Source: Candidatus Lloydbacteria bacterium RIFCSPHIGHO2_02_FULL_50_18 (GTDB taxonomy: Bacteria; Patescibacteriota; Minisyncoccia; Phycocordibacterales; UBA6899). From it: a stretch of 57,064 nucleotides of DNA. The notes beneath the pieces were generated by a model that saw nothing but the letters and a program-made list of their open reading frames with translations, was not told the origin of the DNA and did not search any database. The stretch covers positions 1-57,064 of the forward strand of contig MHLM01000010.1 of NCBI GenBank assembly GCA_001821395.1, in the 5' to 3' direction. Shown here piece after piece: positions 7,101 to 35,295 of this stretch. A program made the position numbers and the translations under genes. Every line of letters starts with the position of its first letter. Positions within the stretch are counted from its first letter, which is position 1.

Positions 7101-7414
7101 GAATGTAAATCGATTGTGCATGAAACAAAATACCAGTCCTCCAACGGGATCGGTTATGCTGTGTATTTTACCAAAAAATGGCTAAAAATGGTGTTATTTC
7201 TACGCAATAATGAGCAGTGAACAGTGGCTCAACCGCACCACATTTGCTCTATGGTAAAAGTTTTCCACAGGTTAGTCTCCGTCGTGCGTCTTCTTCATTT
7301 TTTGATTGACAAATTTTTCATTGGATGATAGAAAGTGCAAGGATTTTTCTATCTTGAAAAGGCGCTACCGTGGTACAAAAAATATTGGCACGTGCAACCG
7401 TATCAGAGGCATCA

Positions 7415-7759
7415 ATGATGTCCGTACTGTCGATCTTTTTCGTTTTTCCGCTACTTTTTTTGAGCAATTGGTTCCTCGGCAAAAGAGGTTTGACACTCGC
7501 CATGAGTGACGCGGTGCTCGTCTGGACTTTGGCAATGGCGATTACGCACTCCTTGTTCTCACCGGTATCGTATACCGGGATTCTTGTTGCAGTTGCAGAA
7601 TCATTCGGGTACACCGTAGCGTTCAGTCTTGTTTACTGGCCGCTACCCAAACTTGAAGTATTGCTTATCTTCATTATTTTCGGTGTGGTGTCTTACTGCT
7701 TTGGACTCCTGCGCATCAAGCGCCTCAAGAAAAAAGGTTACGTAGAAAAAATAGCCTGA
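7415..7759 (+). CDS. Small hydrophobic membrane protein (hypothetical). The ORF-track start at 7370 is GTG; the ATG at 7415 is preceded by an AGAGG SD.
   Basis: ORF-track entry 7370..7759 has 3-4 predicted TM helices. An internal ATGATG at 7415 follows a Shine-Dalgarno (cagaggc). No family recognised. Confidence 0.4.
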   Translation: MMSVLSIFFVFPLLFLSNWFLGKRGLTLAMSDAVLVWTLAMAITHSLFSPVSYTGILVAVAESFGYTVAFSLVYWPLPKLEVLLIFIIFGVVSYCFGLLRIKRLKKKGYVEKIA

Positions 7760-7767
7760 CTAAAAAC

Positions 7768-7798
7768 AAACGCCATCCGGAACGGACGGCGTTTTTTT
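7768..7798 (+). terminator. Rho-independent terminator after the 7415..7759 gene
   Basis: GC-rich hairpin aacgccatccgg aac ggacggcgtt followed by TTTTTTT, 9 nt after the TGA at 7757-7759. Confidence 0.55.
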
Positions 7799-7912
7799 AT
7801 CCACATTTTTCAAACCCTACACCACACCGATCTCTTTAACGTGGGCATTCTTCATTAGAAAAACCTGCACATTAAAACATCCACAAAATCAGTACTACGC
7901 GTAGTAAAATTT

Positions 7913-17600: not shown

Positions 17601-17727
17601 GTGATGCTTTCAAATTGAGATGAAGAACGAGTTGAAATACAGATTTTGCTAGCAAGCCTTACTCCTGTAAGGTGAGGCGCAAAATCTGTATTTCAACGAA
17701 GTAATTCGCTCAATTTGGAAACATCAC
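17601..17727. repeat. About 127-bp imperfect palindrome with a perfect 18-bp inner stem (ttgaaatacagattttgc / gcaaaatctgtatttcaa) overlapping the stop codon of 17724..18788
   Basis: Outer arms gtgatgctttcaaattgag... / ...ctcaatttggaaacatcac are imperfect. The inner arms at 17631-17648 and 17678-17695 are perfect. No U-tract follows on either strand. Confidence 0.5.
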
Positions 17728-18788
17728 CCGAAATAGAAGAAGAGGATCAATAGTCCCACAATGATCGCAAACAATAACCCGATCGCCACTGCCGCCAAAC
17801 GCGAGATACCTCGCGCACCGCGCACCGCTCCCCCTCCGCGTGTACCCACCACTCCCGCTAACTGTCGACGCACATAGAGGCGGATCAAGACGTAGAGCAC
17901 GAGAATGAATGTGAAGAGTCCTCCAACGACCGGCCCGATGATGTTCATGGGGAGTATCCAGAATGATGTCACCGAGGAAATGGTCTGATTCCCTCCGTCA
18001 ACGAGAGGGATGACGAGCGCGACGACCGCCTCGAAGTGTCCGATCACAAATCCTTCAGGCTGCCACTTTACCTCATACTTTCCCGTACTATTCGGGGAAA
18101 TAACGTATGCGGTCTCATTGACGAGCAGTGATTCGACCTTCTTTCCGAACATATCGGTGATGTCGATCAAGCCTTGCGGTCGAGAAAGCGTATTCCCTTT
18201 ATTCTCCGCTTCAACGGTAAAGATCACGTTTGGAGAGCCGTAAATGAGCTTGTCGGTGAGGAATGCACGCATGCGTGTGTCTTCTTTGACATCACCCGCC
18301 ATTTGAAAATGAAGAATAGCCCCAATGTCAAACCCGACGGCAGAACCCTCCTTGAGATCGGGCGGTTTCTGCGTCAGAAACAATCCCGCAAGGTGTGAGC
18401 CGGGGCGCGCGTCAGCGGGAAATTTAACGGTAAAATGCAGCGTCGCACTACCGCCGGCAGGAACATCGAGCATTGATTCTGAATACGTGATCCACGACGC
18501 GAGCTCGGTCGCATTTGCATCGGCACCCTCCACGTAAACCGGCTGATGATCTAGAGCGATGGTGGCAATGTTCCGGGCAACGGGGTATAGCACAGTCCCC
18601 TGGTCGCCGCGATTTTCGACACGCATCGAATATGAGTGTTCCGAACTCGGCTCAACCTTATCTTCGATCGTCGTCGGGGAAAGATTAAAACTCACCTTAT
18701 TTTGCGCGAAGACCGCAAACGGCGTCATCAGCATGGCGGAACATGCGACAACAACAGCACCTCTTAATATCGTATTAGATCTCAACAT
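17724..18788 (-). CDS. Surface protein with signal peptide, beta-rich ectodomain, C-terminal TM helix and Arg/Gly-rich tail (DUF916/DUF3324-like architecture, assigned from memory)
   Basis: Signal peptide MLRSNTILRGAVVVACSAMLMTPFAVFA and C-terminal FWILPMNIIGPVVGGLFTFILVLYVLIRLYVRRQ. Paralogous to 24432..25817 and 25838..27109, which share the FWI(I/M)PW...TM motif. Confidence 0.5.
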   Translation of the reverse strand: MLRSNTILRGAVVVACSAMLMTPFAVFAQNKVSFNLSPTTIEDKVEPSSEHSYSMRVENRGDQGTVLYPVARNIATIALDHQPVYVEGADANATELASWITYSESMLDVPAGGSATLHFTVKFPADARPGSHLAGLFLTQKPPDLKEGSAVGFDIGAILHFQMAGDVKEDTRMRAFLTDKLIYGSPNVIFTVEAENKGNTLSRPQGLIDITDMFGKKVESLLVNETAYVISPNSTGKYEVKWQPEGFVIGHFEAVVALVIPLVDGGNQTISSVTSFWILPMNIIGPVVGGLFTFILVLYVLIRLYVRRQLAGVVGTRGGGAVRGARGISRLAAVAIGLLFAIIVGLLILFFYFG

Positions 18789-18949
18789 AAAAATTTAGAA
18801 CCTCTCCCTCCCGGCGAGGCGTGTATGCTATGTGTATAAATTTTCCTTTTTCTCCACTCTGACACTAGAAGCTATTGTACCCAATCATTATGGAAGTGGA
18901 AAGGAATAACCCTGCATATGTGTCTTTTGTAGCGATCTTTTGCACAAAT

Positions 18950-19033: not shown

Positions 19034-20185
19034 CTAGAAGATCGGAGTACAGACGTAGGTGATAACGTTGTTGTAGTCGACAGCGGCTTCCTGGAGTGCG
19101 GTGACCTGTACGCGATATCCGACACGTGTCTTTCCGATGTTGTCAGTTGTTCCATCCGCAACAGCATTATGATAGAGCACGGTTCGTGTCGACGTCGCGG
19201 TAAGTCCGGCATAGAGCGACGTACCAAAGGCATCTGTTGGAAGCGATGAATCTTCAGATGTCACACCCATATGTCCATAGGTCTCGGTAACTCCAAGAGT
19301 TCCAGCGGGTGTCGTCCATGCAACAGGGGCACCAGTCACCGCTTCATTGTCCTTAAACGCATTAATGTTCGCACCATTTGCTGAGGTAAGATCCTGGTTT
19401 TCAGTGATCGTCACAGAGAAGCCATTGAATGCATTCGTCGCTACGGTGATGTCTTGCGCTGCTATTGAGGATGTACCGACAGAGATGACACCGAACCCAA
19501 TAGCAGTTGCTGATGTTGAGGTCGACGTCGTATCACCATTTATCATAGAACTTGAAGCAACGCCGGCAATCGTAAAGGTCAAATTAGTGTCGACGATGGC
19601 GGTCATAGTGACGGAACTAATGATCGCGATGCGTGTATCTGCGGCATCAGTCATGGTGCCGTTTATACGAACAACATAGGATCCATTCGTACCATTGACG
19701 ACATGCGCATTGGAGATATTCACGAGAATAGCTCCTGCGGCGATAGAATCACCAGTACATGTAGTAAATTCTATATAATCGGGATTGGTGCCTTGATTTG
19801 AGGCATATATCTCATCTGTACCCCCCGCACACGCACCGATATTTGCAACCTGAGTAAGACCACCACCGGTACGTGAAATATGCACATCGGTACCGAGGGC
19901 CACCGCAGAAACATCAAAAGTATTCCCGGTCGGATCAAACGTGATGCGTGTTGTGGATCCGGTAGAACCACCGATGGGATTTACGGTCGTGAATCGCACC
20001 ATATAGTTAGTAGAAACCGATGGCGCTGATGAGGACGCGGTTGCGCTCACAGACAGCAACTGCGACGCAGATGCAGTATTAAAAAGAAACGGGAGGCCGA
20101 GTGCCCATGAAAGGGTTGCGACGACGAGGGTCGTGGCGAGCCACTTCATACGAATTAAAGAACGAAATGCGCTTGTGTAGTCCAT
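19034..20185 (-). CDS. Secreted Ser/Thr-rich beta-rich protein, paralog 1 of a tandem triplet (conserved N-terminus ASQLxSVSATASSSAPS..TNYMVRFTTVN and C-terminus ITYVCTPIF)
   Basis: About 60% identical to 20608..21765 and 21805..22980 over the full length. Signal peptide present and 4 conserved Cys. No recognised domain; the WxL-like idea is unconfirmed because no W-x-L motifs were seen. Confidence 0.6.
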   Translation of the reverse strand: MDYTSAFRSLIRMKWLATTLVVATLSWALGLPFLFNTASASQLLSVSATASSSAPSVSTNYMVRFTTVNPIGGSTGSTTRITFDPTGNTFDVSAVALGTDVHISRTGGGLTQVANIGACAGGTDEIYASNQGTNPDYIEFTTCTGDSIAAGAILVNISNAHVVNGTNGSYVVRINGTMTDAADTRIAIISSVTMTAIVDTNLTFTIAGVASSSMINGDTTSTSTSATAIGFGVISVGTSSIAAQDITVATNAFNGFSVTITENQDLTSANGANINAFKDNEAVTGAPVAWTTPAGTLGVTETYGHMGVTSEDSSLPTDAFGTSLYAGLTATSTRTVLYHNAVADGTTDNIGKTRVGYRVQVTALQEAAVDYNNVITYVCTPIF

Positions 20186-20390
20186 AGTGTGAACTTTTAT
20201 TTTGATAACGAATAACGGCTTGCAAAATTGGAGAATTTGCAGCGGGAGAAAGTGAAGCGTCTATGTTCTCATCGTATGCATATTCTTTGTGGGAAGAATA
20301 TGCGGATCGCCTAGAACACTTCTGTTATTCGCGAATGGGATGTTTTGTGTTGTTCGCTGTTTGGTTAAACATCGAACTCACCTGTCGTTA

Positions 20391-20523
20391 ATTATACAGT
20401 ACCTGTGGAAAAACAGTGCGCTAACGGTGGATAACTGTGGATAACTATTAACGAGAACCATACTTCCACTGTAACAGAGGGGTGTCGGACCACAGCATTA
20501 ATTCAACTTTTGTTATCCACAGG
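20391..20523 (-). promoter_or_regulatory. Promoter of paralog 1: a -10 TATAAT (plus-strand attata at 20391-20396) directly abutting a conserved ~45-bp element with three direct TGTGGAWAA-like repeats, plus an inverted TTATCCACA at 20513-20521
   Basis: The element cctgtggaaaaa.agtg....aac.gtg.ata.ctgtggataact (20402-20446) is near-identical to 23362-23406 and lies at the same distance from a TATAAT in both copies. The -35 is poor, which suggests activator dependence. Confidence 0.5.
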
Positions 20524-20547
20524 AGTGGACAACTTCCCCACAACAAA

Positions 20548-20592
20548 CAAAATACCCCGCCATATTGAAATAGGGCGGGGTATTTTATTTCT
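20548..20592 (-). terminator. Rho-independent terminator after paralog 2
   Basis: Hairpin aataccccgcc atattgaaatag ggcggggtatt, with a T-rich run on the minus strand, 16 nt after the stop at 20608. Confidence 0.6.
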
Positions 20593-22980: not shown

Positions 22981-23350
22981 AAAGAACTAGTGGGATAAAA
23001 AACATCAAGTTGACGAAACTATGCGCAACGATCCACGAATTCTTGCTCCAACGTTCAGAAACTTGTTGTGACACGCACCTGCATGTCCTCGTTTTCCTCC
23101 GTCAGCGCACGCAGTCTGTGGATCATTATTCACAAGTTTTGCAACTTGGTGGGATGAATAATGGCAAACTGAACATTCCAACAAAAAATGCGCTATTCGT
23201 TCTTCTTCATCGGCGAGTGCCGAGAATAAGCCGAGACATTAAAAAACTTGTGGATCGTTTTTCAATGCAACAATTGGGATGGTGATTCCTCCTGTACCGT
23301 CGTCCTCGGAGTGTGGATATCCGAGAATACATAGAATGCACCTAGTATTT

Positions 23351-23406
23351 ATTATAACCTGCCTGTGGAAAAAGAGTGGACAAACTGTGAATAGCTGTGG
23401 ATAACT
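23351..23406 (-). promoter_or_regulatory. Promoter of paralog 3: a -10 TATAAT (plus-strand attata at 23351-23356) abutting a second copy of the TGTGGAWAA-repeat element (23362-23406)
   Basis: Same architecture as 20391..20446. Further TGTGGAT copies occur at 23115-23124, 23249-23258 and 23312-23321 between this promoter and the start codon. Confidence 0.5.
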
Positions 23407-23775: not shown

Positions 23776-24054
23776 CTATCGAAAAAGAGAGTCGTGTGAT
23801 CCCAAGTCAACGAGGAGAAGTACGAGTATACCCTCGTGCTTCTGATACACGAGCAGTATGTCATTCCCAACGTGGCACTCGCGATAATTCTTTAGATCAC
23901 CAGAGAGTTGATGGTCACGATACCCGGTTGAAAGCTTTTCTCCGACGGCAAGTGCGTCAATCACGACATCGAGATCATGCTGAACAAAATCCTTGTGCCG
24001 CAAAATCCGCTTGTATGCTTTTCGATATGCTTTTGTGGAGCGAACAATATACAT
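23776..24054 (-). CDS. relE: RelE/YafQ-family type II toxin (mRNA interferase)
   Basis: HQLSGDLKNYRECHVGNDILLVYQKHEGILVLLLVDLGSH matches the YafQ/RelE C-terminal catalytic region. 92 aa, 2 bp downstream of the antitoxin gene. Confidence 0.75.
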   Translation of the reverse strand: MYIVRSTKAYRKAYKRILRHKDFVQHDLDVVIDALAVGEKLSTGYRDHQLSGDLKNYRECHVGNDILLVYQKHEGILVLLLVDLGSHDSLFR

Positions 24055-24056
24055 AC

Positions 24057-24332
24057 CTAGCGATTGCCAAGAATGTCATCGTGCAATTCTTTTGCGGTAC
24101 GGTATGAGGGACCATGCTTGAGTGCATACTCTGCCTCCTTGATCAGCTGTCGTTTCTTCTTCGTCGGCCAGTAGTCGGCACTGACGACGGGAAACGGTAT
24201 CGCCTGTTTATTGACGACTTGGGTAAGATACAATTTCACCCCGGAGGACATATCGAGTCCCATTGCACTAAATGTTTTTTGTGCCAACTCTTTTGTTTTT
24301 TTATCAATGCGGATTTGTAGCGTGGTATTCAT
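24057..24332 (-). CDS. relB: RelB/DinJ-family antitoxin
   Basis: MNTTLQIRIDKKTKELAQKTFSAMGLDMSSGVKLYLTQVV is typical of DinJ/RelB. The ORF-track start at 24338 is TTG; the ATG at 24332 is preferred. Confidence 0.75.
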   Translation of the reverse strand: MNTTLQIRIDKKTKELAQKTFSAMGLDMSSGVKLYLTQVVNKQAIPFPVVSADYWPTKKKRQLIKEAEYALKHGPSYRTAKELHDDILGNR

Positions 24333-24359
24333 GGGCAAAGTGTACCCTCCCTCTGTTTG

Positions 24360-27367: not shown

Positions 27368-30300
27368 TTAGAACGTCGGAACGACGAGGTATATCAGTCT
27401 TACCGAATAACTTCCCGCGGGCTGGGCGTTCCTCACATCAAGCCGATAGACCATATTCGCGACATCAGCGGTAACCGGTCCAGAATTGTACATGACCTCT
27501 TCGAGTGTTGTAGAGGCGAACGGAGCGTATGTATCATTCATCAGAAAACGCGTCGAGCCCGCTCCCAGCGTGTCATCCCCCGCATGATATCCGAAACATC
27601 CGGAGAGCGTCCCGGGACAGGCTGTCGCCCAATCGAGCGGAACCGCGTTCGTACTTTCCACGTCGGGAATATCTCCAACGGATGCAGTGAACCGGCCATC
27701 TGTGCCCAAAAATACCTGATACCCATTTTCCGCATTCGTCGTGACCGAAAGTTGCTGTGCGGCGGTCTTCCCCGTCCCCGGAGTAATGGTCATGAATGAG
27801 GTTTGTGTCGGCGTCGTTCCCACATCGGTCGTCACCCCCTCCGTCACCGTCGATGTCGCGAGCCCGGAAATACTGAACGAGAGCGTCGTGCCCTCTACGG
27901 AGAGCGACGGATAGCTCGCGAGCGCTGCGAGCGGGACCGGGCGATTGTGATTCACATCGTACGCGCGGAAGAAGTACGTAGTATTGAAATATGCACGACG
28001 CCCGATGATCGTGAATTCGTATTCCGTTGCGGTCGACGCCGGCGCATAAAATGTCGTCGTGTTCGTCGCCGACTCATTATGTGTACCATTCGCAGCGGAG
28101 TCGGAGAGTACGCGCGCGGTGATCGGATCATTATTGGTATCAACTCCGTTCCCATAGCACCACTGTGACATCGCCACACATGTCGAGGTCGACTCAACGT
28201 AATTCACATTCGTGGAAAAATCAGAGTAGGTTGAGAATTGCAGACGGAATTTCTGATTCGGGCCCATCGATGCATTGGTCTCGTTGATCGTGAGACGGAG
28301 TTTGATCGTGTTGCCGTTCGCGACATTTGACGGTGCGACGATCTCGCCCGCACCCGAAAGCGATACGGATGGATTCGCACTGGTCTCATCATCATACCAA
28401 TGCCATTTTTTCTCCTCGGGCATAAAACCGCGCGTCGTGATGACGGGGTAAAAATCGTAACTGAAAAGCGCACTACCGTCCGATTTTGTCATTCGGAAAC
28501 AGTACGGCGTATTCGTCGCGGCATTATTACTCTGAATATTCCAGTCATATTCAACATCATTTCCCACGATCACCGCAAATGGATTCACTGCCGTCGGATT
28601 GGATTCCTGATATGTTCCTGCGGAATCAGACACTGAGAGGAGCACGGTGCCCCCTGGTGGAGGATCTCCTCCTGCAAGCTGTGCCCCATCGGTAATAGTT
28701 GGTGCGTTGTATCCTCTCCAAAGTACACCCGAGGCAGGAGCGCCAAGATCGGTCCACGAAGCGACCGCTCCGCACGAGGTCACTTTTTGCGCGAACTGCA
28801 AATTGAATTGCGTCGATGACGCGGTCATCGTCGTGGTCGCGACCTTGAGTGACATGCGCAGGCGTATGCGGTCCCCATTTGCGGGAGGATTGTCCGCCGC
28901 GGTGATCTCCGCATTCTCACCAAGATTTCCCAGACCCGATGGCCACGCGACGGTCGGGGTGAGCGCACCATTGTCCTGATAGAGTCGGAAATAATTTTGC
29001 GTAAATGTCGGGACCAAAAGCTCTTGATTCGCGTCGTAGGTCACGACCACGATATTCGCGAATGATGCCAAGTTTGCCTGACTCTTCGACTCATTGATCT
29101 CGATAACGCGCTCATTCCATAAAATAGTATTACCGTTCGAGAACGTCGATGATGCGATCGGGGCGAAATAGGTTGAAACATACGCTTCATTCAATGTCGC
29201 GTTGGTATCGACAGACTCTTGCACCACAGTAGAAGAGCCATTCACGCCGATGGTAAGATTTCCGATAGCAATATTCGTTGCCTGTGAGTGCATGAACTTC
29301 GTCTCAAGATATGCGCTCCGGTATGTCTTTGTCACTGTCTCGGGAAGATCGATATATGCAGGTCGATTATTGTAATCATTCGCTATCGCATCGAGTCCTT
29401 GCTGAGCGGCCGAAAATGTCACCGTCTGCGTTTGCGGACCGCCAAATTTTCCGCTCCACGTGAACGTGAAATATACCTCGACCGCCATCGGGGCCGCGCC
29501 AGCCGTATACTGCTCGGCCCCTGCAATCGCAGTTGCGGCGGTAAAGAAATTTTCCGCCTTGTCGGACAGATCGAATATCAAATTGAAATCATCACCCGAA
29601 CGCGGATTCACACCACCGATAGTAATGGCGCGTGAAACTTCCGACGATGTCCCCACCTTGCCATAGATAGTGATATTCGCAGTCGAGGTTGCTGCCACAT
29701 GCGCCTTGAACCACACATTCTGCATTGAAAGCCCCGTGTTCGATATGGTCATCGTTGTCGTAGGAAATTCACTGCGTGCGTTCCCCGGAGTGGAGGTCGC
29801 GTCCTGATTCATAAAGTAGCGCACTGTTTCTGTTTGTGCTGCCGCACCAGTCGAGTAATTGTACGTCACCACGAGTTCACCACCCAAGGCGTTCATCGGG
29901 ATAGTCCCCATGAGGACATTAAATTTCATGGTTGCATTGCGCTGAAAATTAGGACTTCCCACCGTGGGACGCCAGATGGCTGTCTTTGTGTTGTCGTCGG
30001 TAAGTGCTTCTGTCCAATTGTATGCAGTTGATGTCGCATTCCCCCCACTCCCACCCTGAATACCGATCTGAAAAGTCGATGCAGCCGCAACAGTGTCAGT
30101 CTCTCCGTGTATCTCTACATACACATCAACAATGTCCGCATCAGCAACGGCATCGGGTGTCGTCGATGTTGCTAGGAAAGAACAAGTTGTCGCCGCCGCA
30201 CATGCGGTGCTTCGTGTTCCGCGATCACCTGCGACCATTGAGGATAGCGGGAATCGTACTGTCTTCGTTTCCGTGTGTGGAACGAGCGAAAAGTTTTCTT

Positions 30301-32701
30301 CATACGTCACAACGAGCCTCACCGTCGTTAAGGAATGTGATGGACCGGTCACCGAGATTGAGGTCACAATGGGTATTCCCGCATTAAAACTCGCATCTCC
30401 CTGCCGATCAAAAAATGCAGTGACATCATACTGGTGACGCTGATACCCCGAGAGCCCGCTTTGTGCCCACAGTGATGCACCAAGCAACTCGGAAATGCGT
30501 GCGTTCGTTCCTCCGGAAGAAGAACCTCCAACGTCAATAAAGACATTTTCATTCGTCACGTTTGCGGCGGTATTGATGACATATGACACATCGAGGTATG
30601 CATTCTTCACTGCGATGCCAGAACCCTGAATCTTCATCAATCGAGTTCCCGCTGTTGCCTTCACGGTATTCCATGTTGCCCCACCATAAACTACTGTTGC
30701 CGTCGTACGCGATGTCGTGTCCGTACCGCCACCCAATACAAATTCAACGGTGCGCAGATGTTTCACTGGCGGAGTATCTTGTGTTAAAGAAAAATCCGCA
30801 TCGTAGGTCACCACGACCATATTCGCGAACGAGGTAAGATTTGCCACATTTTTTCCTTCGCTGATCTCAATGGTGCGCTCGGTCCAAAGGATCGTATTTC
30901 CGTCAGAAAATGTCGATGATGCGATCGGAGCGAAATAGGTCGAGGCATATGCCTCACTTGTTGTATCCGCAGATTCAGTTACTACAGTCGATGAACCGTT
31001 CACACCGATAGTCACCGTACCGACAGTTATACTTGTGCCCTGTGAATGCATATACTTCGTCTCAAGATAGGCACTGCGGTACGTCTTCGTCACCGTCTCA
31101 GGGAGATATAAATAGGCGGGGCGATTATTAAAATCTCCGGTAATCGCATTAACACCTTGCTGGGCTCCGGAAAATGATACGGTTTGCGTCTGTGGTCCGC
31201 CCGCACTTCCTGCCCACGTAAAAGTAAAATACGCCTCGACGCCGGGTGGCGCACCACCGGCAGAGAACTGTGTCGCACCGGTGACATCCGTTGCAGCCGT
31301 AAAGAAATTTCCCGCCACGTCGGACATGTCAAAGATCAAATTATGGTCGTCTCCTGAACGCGGATTCGCAGCCGTAATGGCTATTCCACGAGTGACCTCA
31401 GTTGATGTGCCCACCTTGCCGAACGTCGTAAACGTATTTGCAGCAACAGGTGCGGTGTGTATCTTAAACCAAATGTTTTGCATTGAGAGTCCCCCATTCG
31501 ATACAACCATCGACGTTGTAGCAAAATTATTGCGCGTCGTACCAGGAGCCGCAGTTTCTTGGTCCATAAAGTAACGCACTGTTTCCGTTTGTACTGCAGC
31601 ACCCGTTGAATAGTTGTAGGTGATGACGAGCTCACCACCAAGCGCATTCATTGGAATAGTTCCCGTGAGCACATTAAACTTCATTGTTATATTACTCTGA
31701 AAGTTGGTAGCCCCAACGGTGGGACGCCAAATAGCGGTCTTCGTATTATCGTCAATGAGTGTTTCTGTCCACGCATATGCCGTAGAGGATGCGTTGCCGC
31801 CAGTACCGCCCTGGATACCTATCTGAAATGTCGAAGCAGATGCTACGGCATTGTCCGTTTCCCCGTGTATCTCAACATATACATCAATGATATTTCCATC
31901 GCTCCCATCGGGTATCGTCGATGTCGCAAGAAAAGAACATGTTGAAGCGGCGGCACATGCAGTACTGCGTGTACCGCGGTCACCTGCAACCATTGAAGAA
32001 AGCGGAAATCGCACCGTCTTCGTTTCCGTATGTGGCGTGAGTGAATAATTTTCTTCGTACGTAATGACAAGCTTCACAGTAGTAAGTGCGCGAGTAGGTC
32101 CGGTGATCTGAGTGCCTATAACGACTGGGATCCCTGCATTAAAACTTGCATCACCCTGTCGATCAAAAAATGCAGTGACGTCGTACTGATGCCGCTGATA
32201 GCCGGAAAGGCCACTGTTCGCCCAAAGGCTCGCACCGATATATTCAGAGACGCGTGCGTCGGTTCCACCCGACGAAGAACCGCCGACATCGATATAGACA
32301 TTTTCATTCGTAAGATTGACCGCAGTATTTAAAATATAAGAGACATCAACATATGCATTCTTCACCTCAATACCCGACCCCTGGAGGGCGATCAACCGAG
32401 TTCCTGCCGTTGCCTTAACGGTGTTCCAAGTAGTACCCCCATAGGTTAAAAGGTTGCTTGCGCGCGATGTCGTATCTGTCCCGCCTCCCAAGACAAATTC
32501 GACGGTTCGTAGATGCTTCCCCGTATACGCGGCCTCTGCCCCCCGCGGTGCGAACGGCGTCATGAACCCCAAATAAAAATCGAGTCCGCCAAAACTATAG
32601 AAAATGGTAAGAAGGGTCAAAAAAAATATTCCCGATGTGCGAAAAATGCGACGCGCAGAACGCCGACAGATGCGTTTCACGTTTGCGAAGGGGTTTATCA
32701 T
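27368..32701 (-). CDS. Giant (1777 aa) secreted/anchored protein with two ~586-aa tandem repeat units followed by a unique ~545-aa C-terminal region
   Basis: ATG at 32701 overlaps the upstream stop (ATGA). Hydrophobic N-terminus. Repeat units begin KHLRTVEFVLGGGTDTTSR... and are ~85% identical. Confidence 0.7.
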   Translation of the reverse strand: MINPFANVKRICRRSARRIFRTSGIFFLTLLTIFYSFGGLDFYLGFMTPFAPRGAEAAYTGKHLRTVEFVLGGGTDTTSRASNLLTYGGTTWNTVKATAGTRLIALQGSGIEVKNAYVDVSYILNTAVNLTNENVYIDVGGSSSGGTDARVSEYIGASLWANSGLSGYQRHQYDVTAFFDRQGDASFNAGIPVVIGTQITGPTRALTTVKLVITYEENYSLTPHTETKTVRFPLSSMVAGDRGTRSTACAAASTCSFLATSTIPDGSDGNIIDVYVEIHGETDNAVASASTFQIGIQGGTGGNASSTAYAWTETLIDDNTKTAIWRPTVGATNFQSNITMKFNVLTGTIPMNALGGELVITYNYSTGAAVQTETVRYFMDQETAAPGTTRNNFATTSMVVSNGGLSMQNIWFKIHTAPVAANTFTTFGKVGTSTEVTRGIAITAANPRSGDDHNLIFDMSDVAGNFFTAATDVTGATQFSAGGAPPGVEAYFTFTWAGSAGGPQTQTVSFSGAQQGVNAITGDFNNRPAYLYLPETVTKTYRSAYLETKYMHSQGTSITVGTVTIGVNGSSTVVTESADTTSEAYASTYFAPIASSTFSDGNTILWTERTIEISEGKNVANLTSFANMVVVTYDADFSLTQDTPPVKHLRTVEFVLGGGTDTTSRTTATVVYGGATWNTVKATAGTRLMKIQGSGIAVKNAYLDVSYVINTAANVTNENVFIDVGGSSSGGTNARISELLGASLWAQSGLSGYQRHQYDVTAFFDRQGDASFNAGIPIVTSISVTGPSHSLTTVRLVVTYEENFSLVPHTETKTVRFPLSSMVAGDRGTRSTACAAATTCSFLATSTTPDAVADADIVDVYVEIHGETDTVAAASTFQIGIQGGSGGNATSTAYNWTEALTDDNTKTAIWRPTVGSPNFQRNATMKFNVLMGTIPMNALGGELVVTYNYSTGAAAQTETVRYFMNQDATSTPGNARSEFPTTTMTISNTGLSMQNVWFKAHVAATSTANITIYGKVGTSSEVSRAITIGGVNPRSGDDFNLIFDLSDKAENFFTAATAIAGAEQYTAGAAPMAVEVYFTFTWSGKFGGPQTQTVTFSAAQQGLDAIANDYNNRPAYIDLPETVTKTYRSAYLETKFMHSQATNIAIGNLTIGVNGSSTVVQESVDTNATLNEAYVSTYFAPIASSTFSNGNTILWNERVIEINESKSQANLASFANIVVVTYDANQELLVPTFTQNYFRLYQDNGALTPTVAWPSGLGNLGENAEITAADNPPANGDRIRLRMSLKVATTTMTASSTQFNLQFAQKVTSCGAVASWTDLGAPASGVLWRGYNAPTITDGAQLAGGDPPPGGTVLLSVSDSAGTYQESNPTAVNPFAVIVGNDVEYDWNIQSNNAATNTPYCFRMTKSDGSALFSYDFYPVITTRGFMPEEKKWHWYDDETSANPSVSLSGAGEIVAPSNVANGNTIKLRLTINETNASMGPNQKFRLQFSTYSDFSTNVNYVESTSTCVAMSQWCYGNGVDTNNDPITARVLSDSAANGTHNESATNTTTFYAPASTATEYEFTIIGRRAYFNTTYFFRAYDVNHNRPVPLAALASYPSLSVEGTTLSFSISGLATSTVTEGVTTDVGTTPTQTSFMTITPGTGKTAAQQLSVTTNAENGYQVFLGTDGRFTASVGDIPDVESTNAVPLDWATACPGTLSGCFGYHAGDDTLGAGSTRFLMNDTYAPFASTTLEEVMYNSGPVTADVANMVYRLDVRNAQPAGSYSVRLIYLVVPTF
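29002..32518. repeat. Intragenic tandem duplication, 2 x ~1758 bp, inside 27368..32701
   Basis: ORF-track artefacts 30093..30437 and 31851..32048 encode near-identical peptides exactly 1758 bp apart. Confidence 0.7.
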
Positions 32702-35030: not shown

Positions 35031-35295
35031 TCGAGGTGCTCGAGGGTCGAGATTTCAGAAGATATCGACGGTCGATATATATATTCTACATTGTAAAATA
35101 AGGAAATAATAAAAGTTATCCCCAAACAAGAATCTTGCAGGTATGTCAAAGATATTTTAATTGATATTAATGAAATATCAGCGAAGCCGCTATTTTGCAC
35201 AGTCAAAATACCTATATAAATTCACGAATCTCCGGAAGCAATAAAAGACGCTTACGATGATGATAATGGTGTACAAAAAAGTTGCATAATACAAA

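Follow-up and report, generated by a model that had tools for sequence, protein, structure and literature searches.

DnaA-box-type repeats phased with the -10 at promoters of a surface-protein gene cluster in Candidatus Lloydbacteria

Introduction

Bacteria of the Candidate Phyla Radiation (CPR; Patescibacteria) combine tiny genomes with a small set of transcription factors, and attach to their hosts through their surface. To our knowledge, hardly anything has been learnt so far of how these organisms regulate their genes. Here we describe a cis-element built of DnaA-box-type 9-mers, which lies in front of two transcription units for surface-type proteins on contig MHLM01000010.1 of Candidatus Lloydbacteria. 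The 57,064 nucleotides of this contig were analysed as a whole and are called the window below. The window is chromosomal DNA of a member of the class Paceibacteria within the CPR, identical in sequence to contigs from Rifle groundwater. A phage origin was considered and rejected: megablast of the region 14-34 kb against 50,697 phage records returned nothing, and the gene content is chromosomal (PmbA/TldD, a permease, a P-type ATPase). Rfam families and tRNAs were looked for in the window and none was found.

Genes and transcription units of the locus

Three paralogous genes on the minus strand, spoken of as surface-protein genes in a preliminary description of this DNA, are organized in two transcription units (Table 1). 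The genes for the 391-aa and 385-aa proteins are 39 bp apart and make up unit B, while the gene for the 383-aa paralog has its own upstream region (unit A). A very stable intrinsic terminator ends the first of these units, and promoter A therefore drives a unit of its own. In agreement with this, the -10 and the 5' hairpin of the promoters are kept in a sister species, so that the earlier proposal of independent promoters holds.

Pfam gave no domain match for the three paralogs, and their nature was therefore deduced from a structure model. The AlphaFold model of a paralog (predicted local distance difference test, pLDDT, 79) combines an N-terminal hydrophobic helix with two adhesin-like beta-sandwich domains, and its closest structures are Gram-positive MSCRAMM adhesins, pilins, BslA, TasA and a WxL-interacting protein (WxLIP). 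Due to these adhesin, pilin and WxLIP matches, the label "surface protein" is a reasonable one for the predicted fold, as the preliminary description had assumed.

The paralogs belong to a cluster that is syntenic across Paceibacteria and runs from a helix-turn-helix (HTH) protein of 164 aa through p613, a giant protein (1777 aa), two DUF916/WxLIP-like membrane proteins, the surface paralog(s), a DUF916-like protein, p144 and an FGE-sulfatase to a dockerin/Ig protein. Outside the window, cluster genes other than those for the surface proteins were labelled only by their similarity to the window proteins. The cluster is probably the main surface-protein cluster.

Table 1. Positions of genes, boxes and transcription signals in the window. 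Promoter coordinates (-60 to -20) take TATAAT as -12..-7; L001 is the locus of the sister species.
Feature	Position	Strand	Remarks
Surface-protein paralog, 391 aa	21805..22980	-	first gene of unit B
Surface-protein paralog, 385 aa	20608..21765	-	second gene of unit B
Surface-protein paralog, 383 aa	19034..20185	-	unit A
Intrinsic terminator closing the 391-aa/385-aa unit	20545..20590	-	dG (folding free energy) -28.6 kcal/mol, z -7.1
Promoter A, box R1, TTATCCACA	20436..20444	-	perfect; ~-60..-52; motif scan
Promoter A, box R2, TTATCCACC	20426..20434	-	8/9; -50..-42; 1 bp after R1
Promoter A, box R3, TAGCGCACT	20415..20423	-	5/9; -39..-31, in place of a -35; aligns with TTGTCCACT of promoter B
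Promoter A, box R4, TTTTCCACA	20404..20412	-	8/9; fits TTWTNCACA; -28..-20
Promoter A, predicted -10, TATAAT	20391..20396	-	7 nt past R4; sequence; conserved in L001
Promoter A, 5'-terminal hairpin of transcript	20352..20377	-	dG -10.7, z -2.4; L001 -16.4, z -2.9
Face-to-face box pair upstream of promoter A, TTGTCCACT-cc-TGTGGATAA	20513..20532	.	~-148..-129 of promoter A; conserved in L001
Promoter B, box R1, TTATCCACA	23396..23404	-	perfect
Promoter B, box R2, CTATTCACA	23386..23394	-	7/9
Promoter B, box R3, TTGTCCACT	23375..23383	-	7/9
Promoter B, box R4, TTTTCCACA	23364..23372	-	8/9
Promoter B, predicted -10, TATAAT	23351..23356	-	sequence; conserved in L001
Leader hairpin of transcript B	23303..23327	-	ATATCCACA (23312-23320) in loop; conserved in L001
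Box TTATACACA	18831..18839	-	43 nt 5' of DUF916/WxLIP-like gene 17724-18788; motif scan
Cluster-head gene, 164 aa	34536..35030	-	N-terminal Xis/BldC-like winged HTH (HTH_17), linker and transmembrane helix; candidate binder
Variant box at cluster-head promoter	35116..35124	+	inverted relative to the gene (TGGGGATAA on gene strand = TTATCCCCA)

Two promoters with four phased boxes

On the minus strand, promoter A (20446->20391) reads AGTTATCCACAG TTATCCACCG TTAGCGCACTG TTTTTCCACAGG TACTG TATAAT and promoter B (23406->23351) reads AGTTATCCACAG CTATTCACAG TTTGTCCACTC TTTTTCCACAGG CAGGT TATAAT. The preliminary description had reported at both sites a common 45-bp element with three GTGGA-AA direct repeats, placed against a TATAAT and lacking a -35. 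Re-reading the motif directly gave the same placement, and a -35 was undetectable at either promoter. The element and its repeats are likewise real, with a perfect DnaA-box 9-mer (R1), but their extent had been underestimated: each array holds four phased repeats, not three, and the shared block measures ~75 bp, since it takes in the four boxes and the -10 and extends over an AGGTG motif to a 5' hairpin. Its consensus on the gene strand is AGTTATCCACAG-yTATyCACmG-TTwGysCACT-sTTTTTCCACAGG-N5-TATAAT-N~8-AGGTG. The upstream regions A and B align over this block only, the sequence around it being unrelated. The four 9-mers of an array share one orientation and are spaced by 1, 2 and 2 bp, with their CAC cores 10, 11 and 11 bp apart.

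The -10 and start assignments are predictions from the DNA sequence and its conservation; transcription would begin near 20383-20385 at promoter A and near 23344 at promoter B, the latter with a leader of ~365 nt. Within the window, TTTTTCCACAGG-N5-TATAAT occurs at promoters A and B only, compared to 0.05 expected occurrences. Three of the four perfect TTATCCACA lie in the two promoter regions, as do 6 of the 15 TGTGGAT (8 expected).

Further copies had been described around the promoters. The inverted copy at 20513-20521 exists and turned out to be one half of a conserved face-to-face pair (20513-20532). The three TGTGGAT copies placed in 23115-23321 were found as well, at 23117, 23249 and 23312; only the last of them, ATATCCACA in a hairpin loop, is kept in the sister species.

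This sister Lloydbacteria species, GFS_12411 (L001; 69% protein identity to the window homologue), keeps both promoters with four boxes, the 7-nt gap, TATAAT, AGGTG and the 5' hairpin, while the surrounding DNA has diverged. Its face-to-face pair reads TTATCCAC-TTTT-GTGGACAA. Hairpin A is fully paired in L001; in the window one pair is changed on both sides (U-A -> G-C) and one pair is mismatched. In both species this hairpin is more stable than shuffled controls.

The 5' leaders are unusually long (window 22981-23344, ~365 nt, and 20186-20384, ~200 nt, both on the minus strand), and each opens with a hairpin. They are largely kept between the two Lloydbacteria species (L001 9636-10000) and matched no Rfam family. 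Elsewhere in the window, a perfect TTATCCACA at 7797-7805 (+) shares bases with the T-run of a terminator-like hairpin, which is located 3' of an open reading frame for a small membrane protein (ORF, 7370-7759), and TTTTCCACAGG at 7261-7271 lies upstream of the same ORF.

Conservation across Paceibacteria

Conservation was studied in 78 loci from GTDB species genomes, which carry homologues at 37-69% identity and comprise 1.22 Mb. For 70 usable loci, the 450 bp 5' of the surface gene were compared with random windows from the same loci. Of these 70 regions, 42 contained a perfect TTATCCACA, compared to 0.9% of the random windows, and 53 contained TTATNCACA (random windows 2.2%). The perfect box occurs 75 times in the 1.22 Mb, where permuted 9-mers reach a mean of 7.6, and 63 of these boxes fall into 143 kb of intergenic DNA and 12 into 1,079 kb of coding DNA. 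An unbiased 8-mer enrichment, with TATCCACA, TTATCCAC and GTTATCCA as top words, recovered the same motif as (A)GTTATNCACA.

The density of boxes amounts to 1.43/kb 5' of cluster genes, 0.29/kb 5' of other genes and ~0.02/kb in coding DNA. The predicted regulon within the sampled DNA corresponds to this cluster, with at least two controlled promoters in each, the head promoter and the surface-gene promoter. Outside Lloydbacteria and their close relatives the orthologous promoters have a single 9-mer, sometimes inverted.

Two further box arrangements were seen in individual loci. In L046, TTATACACA at 19683 stands 59 bp 5' of a CTP-synthase (PyrG)-like ORF of nucleotide metabolism, the sole case of a box before an identifiable gene whose product is clearly of another type than the surface proteins. 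In L012 (3827-3893) and L017 (4290-4356), a forward perfect box 5' of the DUF916-like gene is followed by a long perfect hairpin, CACAATCGCACCA...TGGTGCGATTGTG, after which an inverted TTATACACA overlaps the -10 (TGTGTATAAT).

Position of the boxes relative to the -10

Gaps were measured between forward boxes and the TAyAnT hexamer that follows. They amount to 21-22 nt (4 cases, all of them cluster-head promoters), 29-33 nt (13), 39-42 nt (24) and 47-53 nt (5), and thus cluster about 21, 31, 40 and 51 nt; inverted boxes stand at 26-28 nt (11 cases) or 30-32 nt (4). At a 10-bp period the Rayleigh R is 0.71 (99.9% of the null, 0.40) and it stays at 0.66 once related promoters are down-weighted (99.9% of the null, 0.57). 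Since the sequence between box and -10 is not conserved between clades, it is the register itself that is under selection.

The linked promoters have a -10 near consensus (TATAAT, TATACT, TACAAT), their -35 scores equal those of random positions, and a TG extension is found in only 7 of 63. A good -10, a lacking -35 and a helically phased site, the three marks of class I/II activator-dependent sigma-70 promoters, are thus found together, and because these promoters have no -35 the box array looks like an activator site. Placed on one helix face (~-38, -48, -57, -67) before a -35-less promoter, the site bears the mark of an activator in contact with RNA polymerase. An activator-type site array had been suggested before; conservation of the repeats across the class and their phasing with the -10 in ~10-bp steps speak for it. 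The same site at fixed helical positions before the same gene family across a class represents a real and probably new regulatory link.

Likeness of the motif to the DnaA box

Among single-mismatch variants of the 9-mer (n=27; counts given as intergenic:coding), enrichment in intergenic over coding DNA was strongest at position 5, with TTATACACA (A) at 19:2 and TTATGCACA (G) at 14:4. The next most frequent variant was A>T at position 3 (14:11), followed at lower counts by C>A at position 6 (10:10), A>C at position 7 (7:4) and T>A at position 1 (7:6). At the level of the motif, the degeneracy at positions 5 and 3 is the classical TTWTNCACA of DnaA boxes. The motif has a sharp 3' boundary after position 9, past which nothing is conserved. 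Its 5' flank prefers A-G, with A in 55% of the instances at -1 and G in 53% at position 0. When compared with the oriC sequence of E. coli, its boxes R1, R2 and R4 all read G-TTATNCACA, and R1 of promoter A with its flank, AGTTATCCACAGT, is identical over 13 nt to R4 of E. coli oriC.

The tandem formed by R1 and R2, GTTATCCACAGnTATnCAC, was found in metagenomes at no fewer than 120 loci of very diverse bacteria with a G+C content (GC) of 25-70%, and many of these tandem loci, among the matches listed, show 5-14 boxes in a stretch of 600 bp; Lloydbacteria are not represented among the matches listed. The tandem follows a bona fide dnaA ORF, recognised by both the DnaA signature and GxGKTHL, at a distance of 23-269 bp in at least 22 unrelated contigs; the DnaA N-termini of these contigs look actinobacterial or of the Firmicutes type. 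At this distance the tandem sits in the intergenic spacer adjoining dnaA, the classical position of an origin, and since it recurs beside dnaA, the geometry seen in the window is genuine DnaA-array geometry. According to chromatin immunoprecipitation sequencing in E. coli, DnaA needs box pairs 2-3 bp apart (PMC11317965), and the 2-bp spacing of R2, R3 and R4 is within this range for cooperative double boxes.

Among the metagenomic matches, human-gut contigs of GC 0.61-0.63 (L090, L091 and ~25 among the matches listed) contain the 10-bp unit GTTATCCACA(G) in two or three copies. Their flanks are otherwise identical, and the difference between GTTATCCACAGTTATCCACAGTTATCCACCG and GTTATCCACAGTTATCCACCG means that a DnaA-box unit is polymorphic in copy number in a Bifidobacterium-like genome.

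Other features of the cluster

Just 3' of the cluster-head -10 lies a conserved palindrome, ATCGACC(N)TCGA(T) (window ~35060-35078, minus strand; ~3950 in L083-L086), which could serve as a second operator or else form a hairpin at the 5' end. Transcription from the cluster-head promoter is predicted to start near ~35076. In the sister Lloydbacteria a DDE transposase gene (L083 1570-2409) is found directly upstream of the cluster head, where the window has none. The 1777-aa protein (27368-32701, minus strand) has an internal duplication of ~640 aa, with HLRTVEFVLGGGTDTTSR... present twice, and its C-terminal motif VVPTF is the same motif as that of the paralogs (VCTPIF). Between the DUF916-like genes and promoter B the window carries a RelB/YafQ toxin-antitoxin pair (23776-24338, minus strand); L001 has other genes at this place.

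Discussion

DnaA is near-universal in bacteria and can be expected on a perfect box whether or not another protein binds there. It is an established transcription factor in E. coli, B. subtilis, Caulobacter and Pseudomonas (PMC4447404, PMC11317965, PMC3193534, PMC13438810). We consider it somewhat probable, at roughly 0.55, that DnaA activates the promoters described here, and the degeneracy, flank and tandem geometry shared with boxes adjacent to dnaA strengthen this idea. The element would then be the DnaA-box operator of two -35-less sigma-70-type promoters in a conserved cell-surface gene cluster. We propose that DnaA binds R1 (AGTTATCCACAG) as a high-affinity anchor box and that in Lloydbacteria DnaA-ATP spreads cooperatively over R2-R4 towards the -10, as on the low-affinity arrays of oriC. 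On this helix face it could recruit or stabilise RNA polymerase at a promoter without -35 in an activation of the class I/II type, while full occupancy of the proximal boxes R3 and R4 at high DnaA-ATP might cause repression, as at nrdAB of E. coli. Other clades would rely for activation on one box alone, placed at -61..-53, -52..-44 or -42..-34, or inverted and placed at -48..-40. The output of the surface-protein genes would thereby follow the replication-initiation state of the cell.

Several points weigh against DnaA as the activator. The 1.2 Mb of Paceibacteria loci contain no dnaA signature, and use of TTATCCACA by the DnaA of this lineage is presumed from the general conservation of domain IV specificity. 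R1 and R2 are spaced by 1 bp, which is outside the 2-3 bp tested in E. coli. The conserved cluster-head variant of Lloydbacteria, TTATCCCCA, alters A7, a position that DnaA normally needs. A lack of the -35 might be general in these organisms, and a physiological link between DnaA and surface proteins is not obvious. Finally, the boxes in the sampled DNA are almost confined to one cluster, which encodes its own DNA-binding protein with a box-bearing promoter, and by the logic of comparative genomics such confinement points to a dedicated regulator.

This regulator could be the membrane-anchored Xis/BldC-like HTH protein of 164 aa at the cluster head, with the boxes as its operator. It would activate the surface genes, regulate its own expression and bind head-to-tail on the direct repeats, and the identity with the DnaA box would be coincidence or mimicry. 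Such binding has precedents, as BldC and recombination-directionality factors occupy direct repeats one helical turn apart as cooperative head-to-tail multimers (PMC5859096, PMC7498355). The cluster-head protein matches Pfam HTH_17, and its AlphaFold2 model shows a winged HTH and then a long helix; the best structures are Pukovnik Xis (template-modelling score, TM, 0.74) and BldC (TM 0.70-0.78 on target), but the E-values of the fold search are weak (0.03-0.5). In every locus that reaches far enough its gene heads the series HTH-p613-giant-..., and two genomes have the HTH domain in one protein with a large extracellular region, a ToxR-like topology. Its own promoter has a forward box at a gap of 21-22 in L029, L043, L066 and L032 (perfect; TTATGCACA in L032). 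In the Lloydbacteria-like clade this box is the inverted variant at a gap of 27, which in the window is counted to TAGAAT (35083-35088) and which is conserved in four other Lloydbacteria-like genomes. For a protein other than DnaA the variant TTATCCCCA would be easier to explain, and the boxes are concentrated in the cluster of the HTH protein itself. However, the motif agrees with the DnaA box at all nine positions and in degeneracy, 5' flank and tandem geometry, which is improbable for an unrelated protein. Most clades, moreover, have a single box in either orientation instead of repeats, and in the Kaiserbacteria- and Nomurabacteria-like loci two promoters keep their boxes although an HTH gene was not seen within +-10 kb. 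We regard the HTH protein as a serious rival of DnaA, though a rather unlikely owner of the site.

Both proteins may also share the site, if the HTH protein had evolved DnaA-box specificity and competed with DnaA or handed over to it, possibly at oriC as well; this we hold for quite doubtful. Surface-gene promoters would in that case be tethered to the membrane, and envelope sensing, surface-protein output and replication initiation would be coupled in ultra-small bacteria with very few regulators.

A pho-box-like site was favoured at first on the four-repeat geometry. Two dimers of an OmpR/PhoB-family response regulator, or another factor, would replace the -35 by occupying four direct repeats with a period of 10-11 bp that extend from -60 to -20 beside a -10 without -35, and the TCCACAG core resembles the TCACAG-type half-sites of Gram-positive PhoP/PhoR/MtrA. 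This reading was dropped and we now consider it very unlikely: orthologous promoters keep one 9-mer, sometimes inverted, and conservation extends over all nine positions, with DnaA-type degeneracy, instead of over a half-site of 6-7 bp. No response-regulator gene is present among the annotated window genes or the precomputed Pfam domains of the related loci.

Least probable of all is a role of the box clusters in replication control, as a cryptic origin or a datA/DARS/DBC-type site for titration or recharging of DnaA with incidental promoter adjacency: at least 10 box-like 9-mers lie between 20404 and 23404, and the identical tandem occurs in dnaA-adjacent spacers of other bacteria, but the cumulative GC skew falls monotonically through the window, from 0 to -1.28, dnaA was found neither in the window nor in any related locus, the cluster has only one or two boxes in most species, the two copies of the element lie within 3 kb of each other and each adjoins a -10 and a gene, and a titration site would not need quantised distances to the -10 before the same gene family. 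On GC skew and promoter coupling, the latter followed through 70 genomes, the reading of the window element as an origin or titration site was rejected, in line with the preliminary description, which had thought an oriC less likely and called for a skew analysis.

DnaA boxes at promoters are an already known kind of regulatory site. In the literature searched no paper tied TTATCCACA to CPR terms, and none described a class-wide, helically phased DnaA-box operator on a CPR surface-protein cluster, a four-box array in place of a -35, a membrane-anchored Xis/BldC-like protein encoded alongside, or a surface-protein cluster as the main DnaA target in a minimal CPR genome. The element is a precisely defined, class-wide cis-element; its position follows clear rules, and it has two concrete candidate binders. 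With DnaA as the activator, the state of replication initiation would directly govern the output of the surface proteome, and DnaA is not reported to have targets of this class. Should the HTH protein bind instead, it would represent a membrane-tethered one-component regulator of a new kind, with a site that cannot be told apart from a DnaA box.

Among known systems, the pho boxes of PhoB/PhoP resemble the arrays in that direct repeats of ~11 bp replace the -35 at roughly -60 to -20. They differ from them since here the repeat pairs are not conserved in orthologues, the 9-mer has DnaA-type degeneracy and the annotated cluster genes include no response regulator. BldC, Xis and Apl (PMC5859096, PMC7498355) share the fold of the cluster-head protein, and their variable number of repeats one turn apart corresponds to the four-repeat layout. 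Their known members are small and soluble with AT-rich or phage att-site targets, whereas here the domain is membrane-anchored, the candidate site is a DnaA box and most orthologous promoters have one site.

With the oriC arrays of E. coli and the dnaA-adjacent spacers of Actinobacteria and Firmicutes the promoters have in common the same box including the 5' G and the combination of a high-affinity anchor with weaker sites of the same orientation, the tandem GTTATCCACAGnTATnCAC standing beside dnaA in at least 22 contigs. In contrast to these, there is no dnaA/dnaN and no skew switch here, and the array abuts TATAAT and a gene twice within 3 kb. In B. subtilis and Caulobacter the initiator also controls non-replication genes through promoter boxes and can activate them (PMC4447404, PMC3193534), but those regulons comprise cell cycle, sporulation checkpoint and nucleotide genes instead of a surface-protein cluster. 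The double-box promoters of nrdAB, mioC, dnaA and purH in E. coli (PMC11317965) likewise have TTATCCACA-type 9-mers of the same orientation at the promoter, 2-3 bp apart, with one near-perfect box and weaker neighbours for which cooperative binding is expected. Compared to them, the Lloydbacteria promoters have four boxes from -60 to -20, no -35 and a first pair 1 bp apart, and the site stands before surface-protein genes, not nucleotide or replication genes, in a class-wide and helically phased arrangement.

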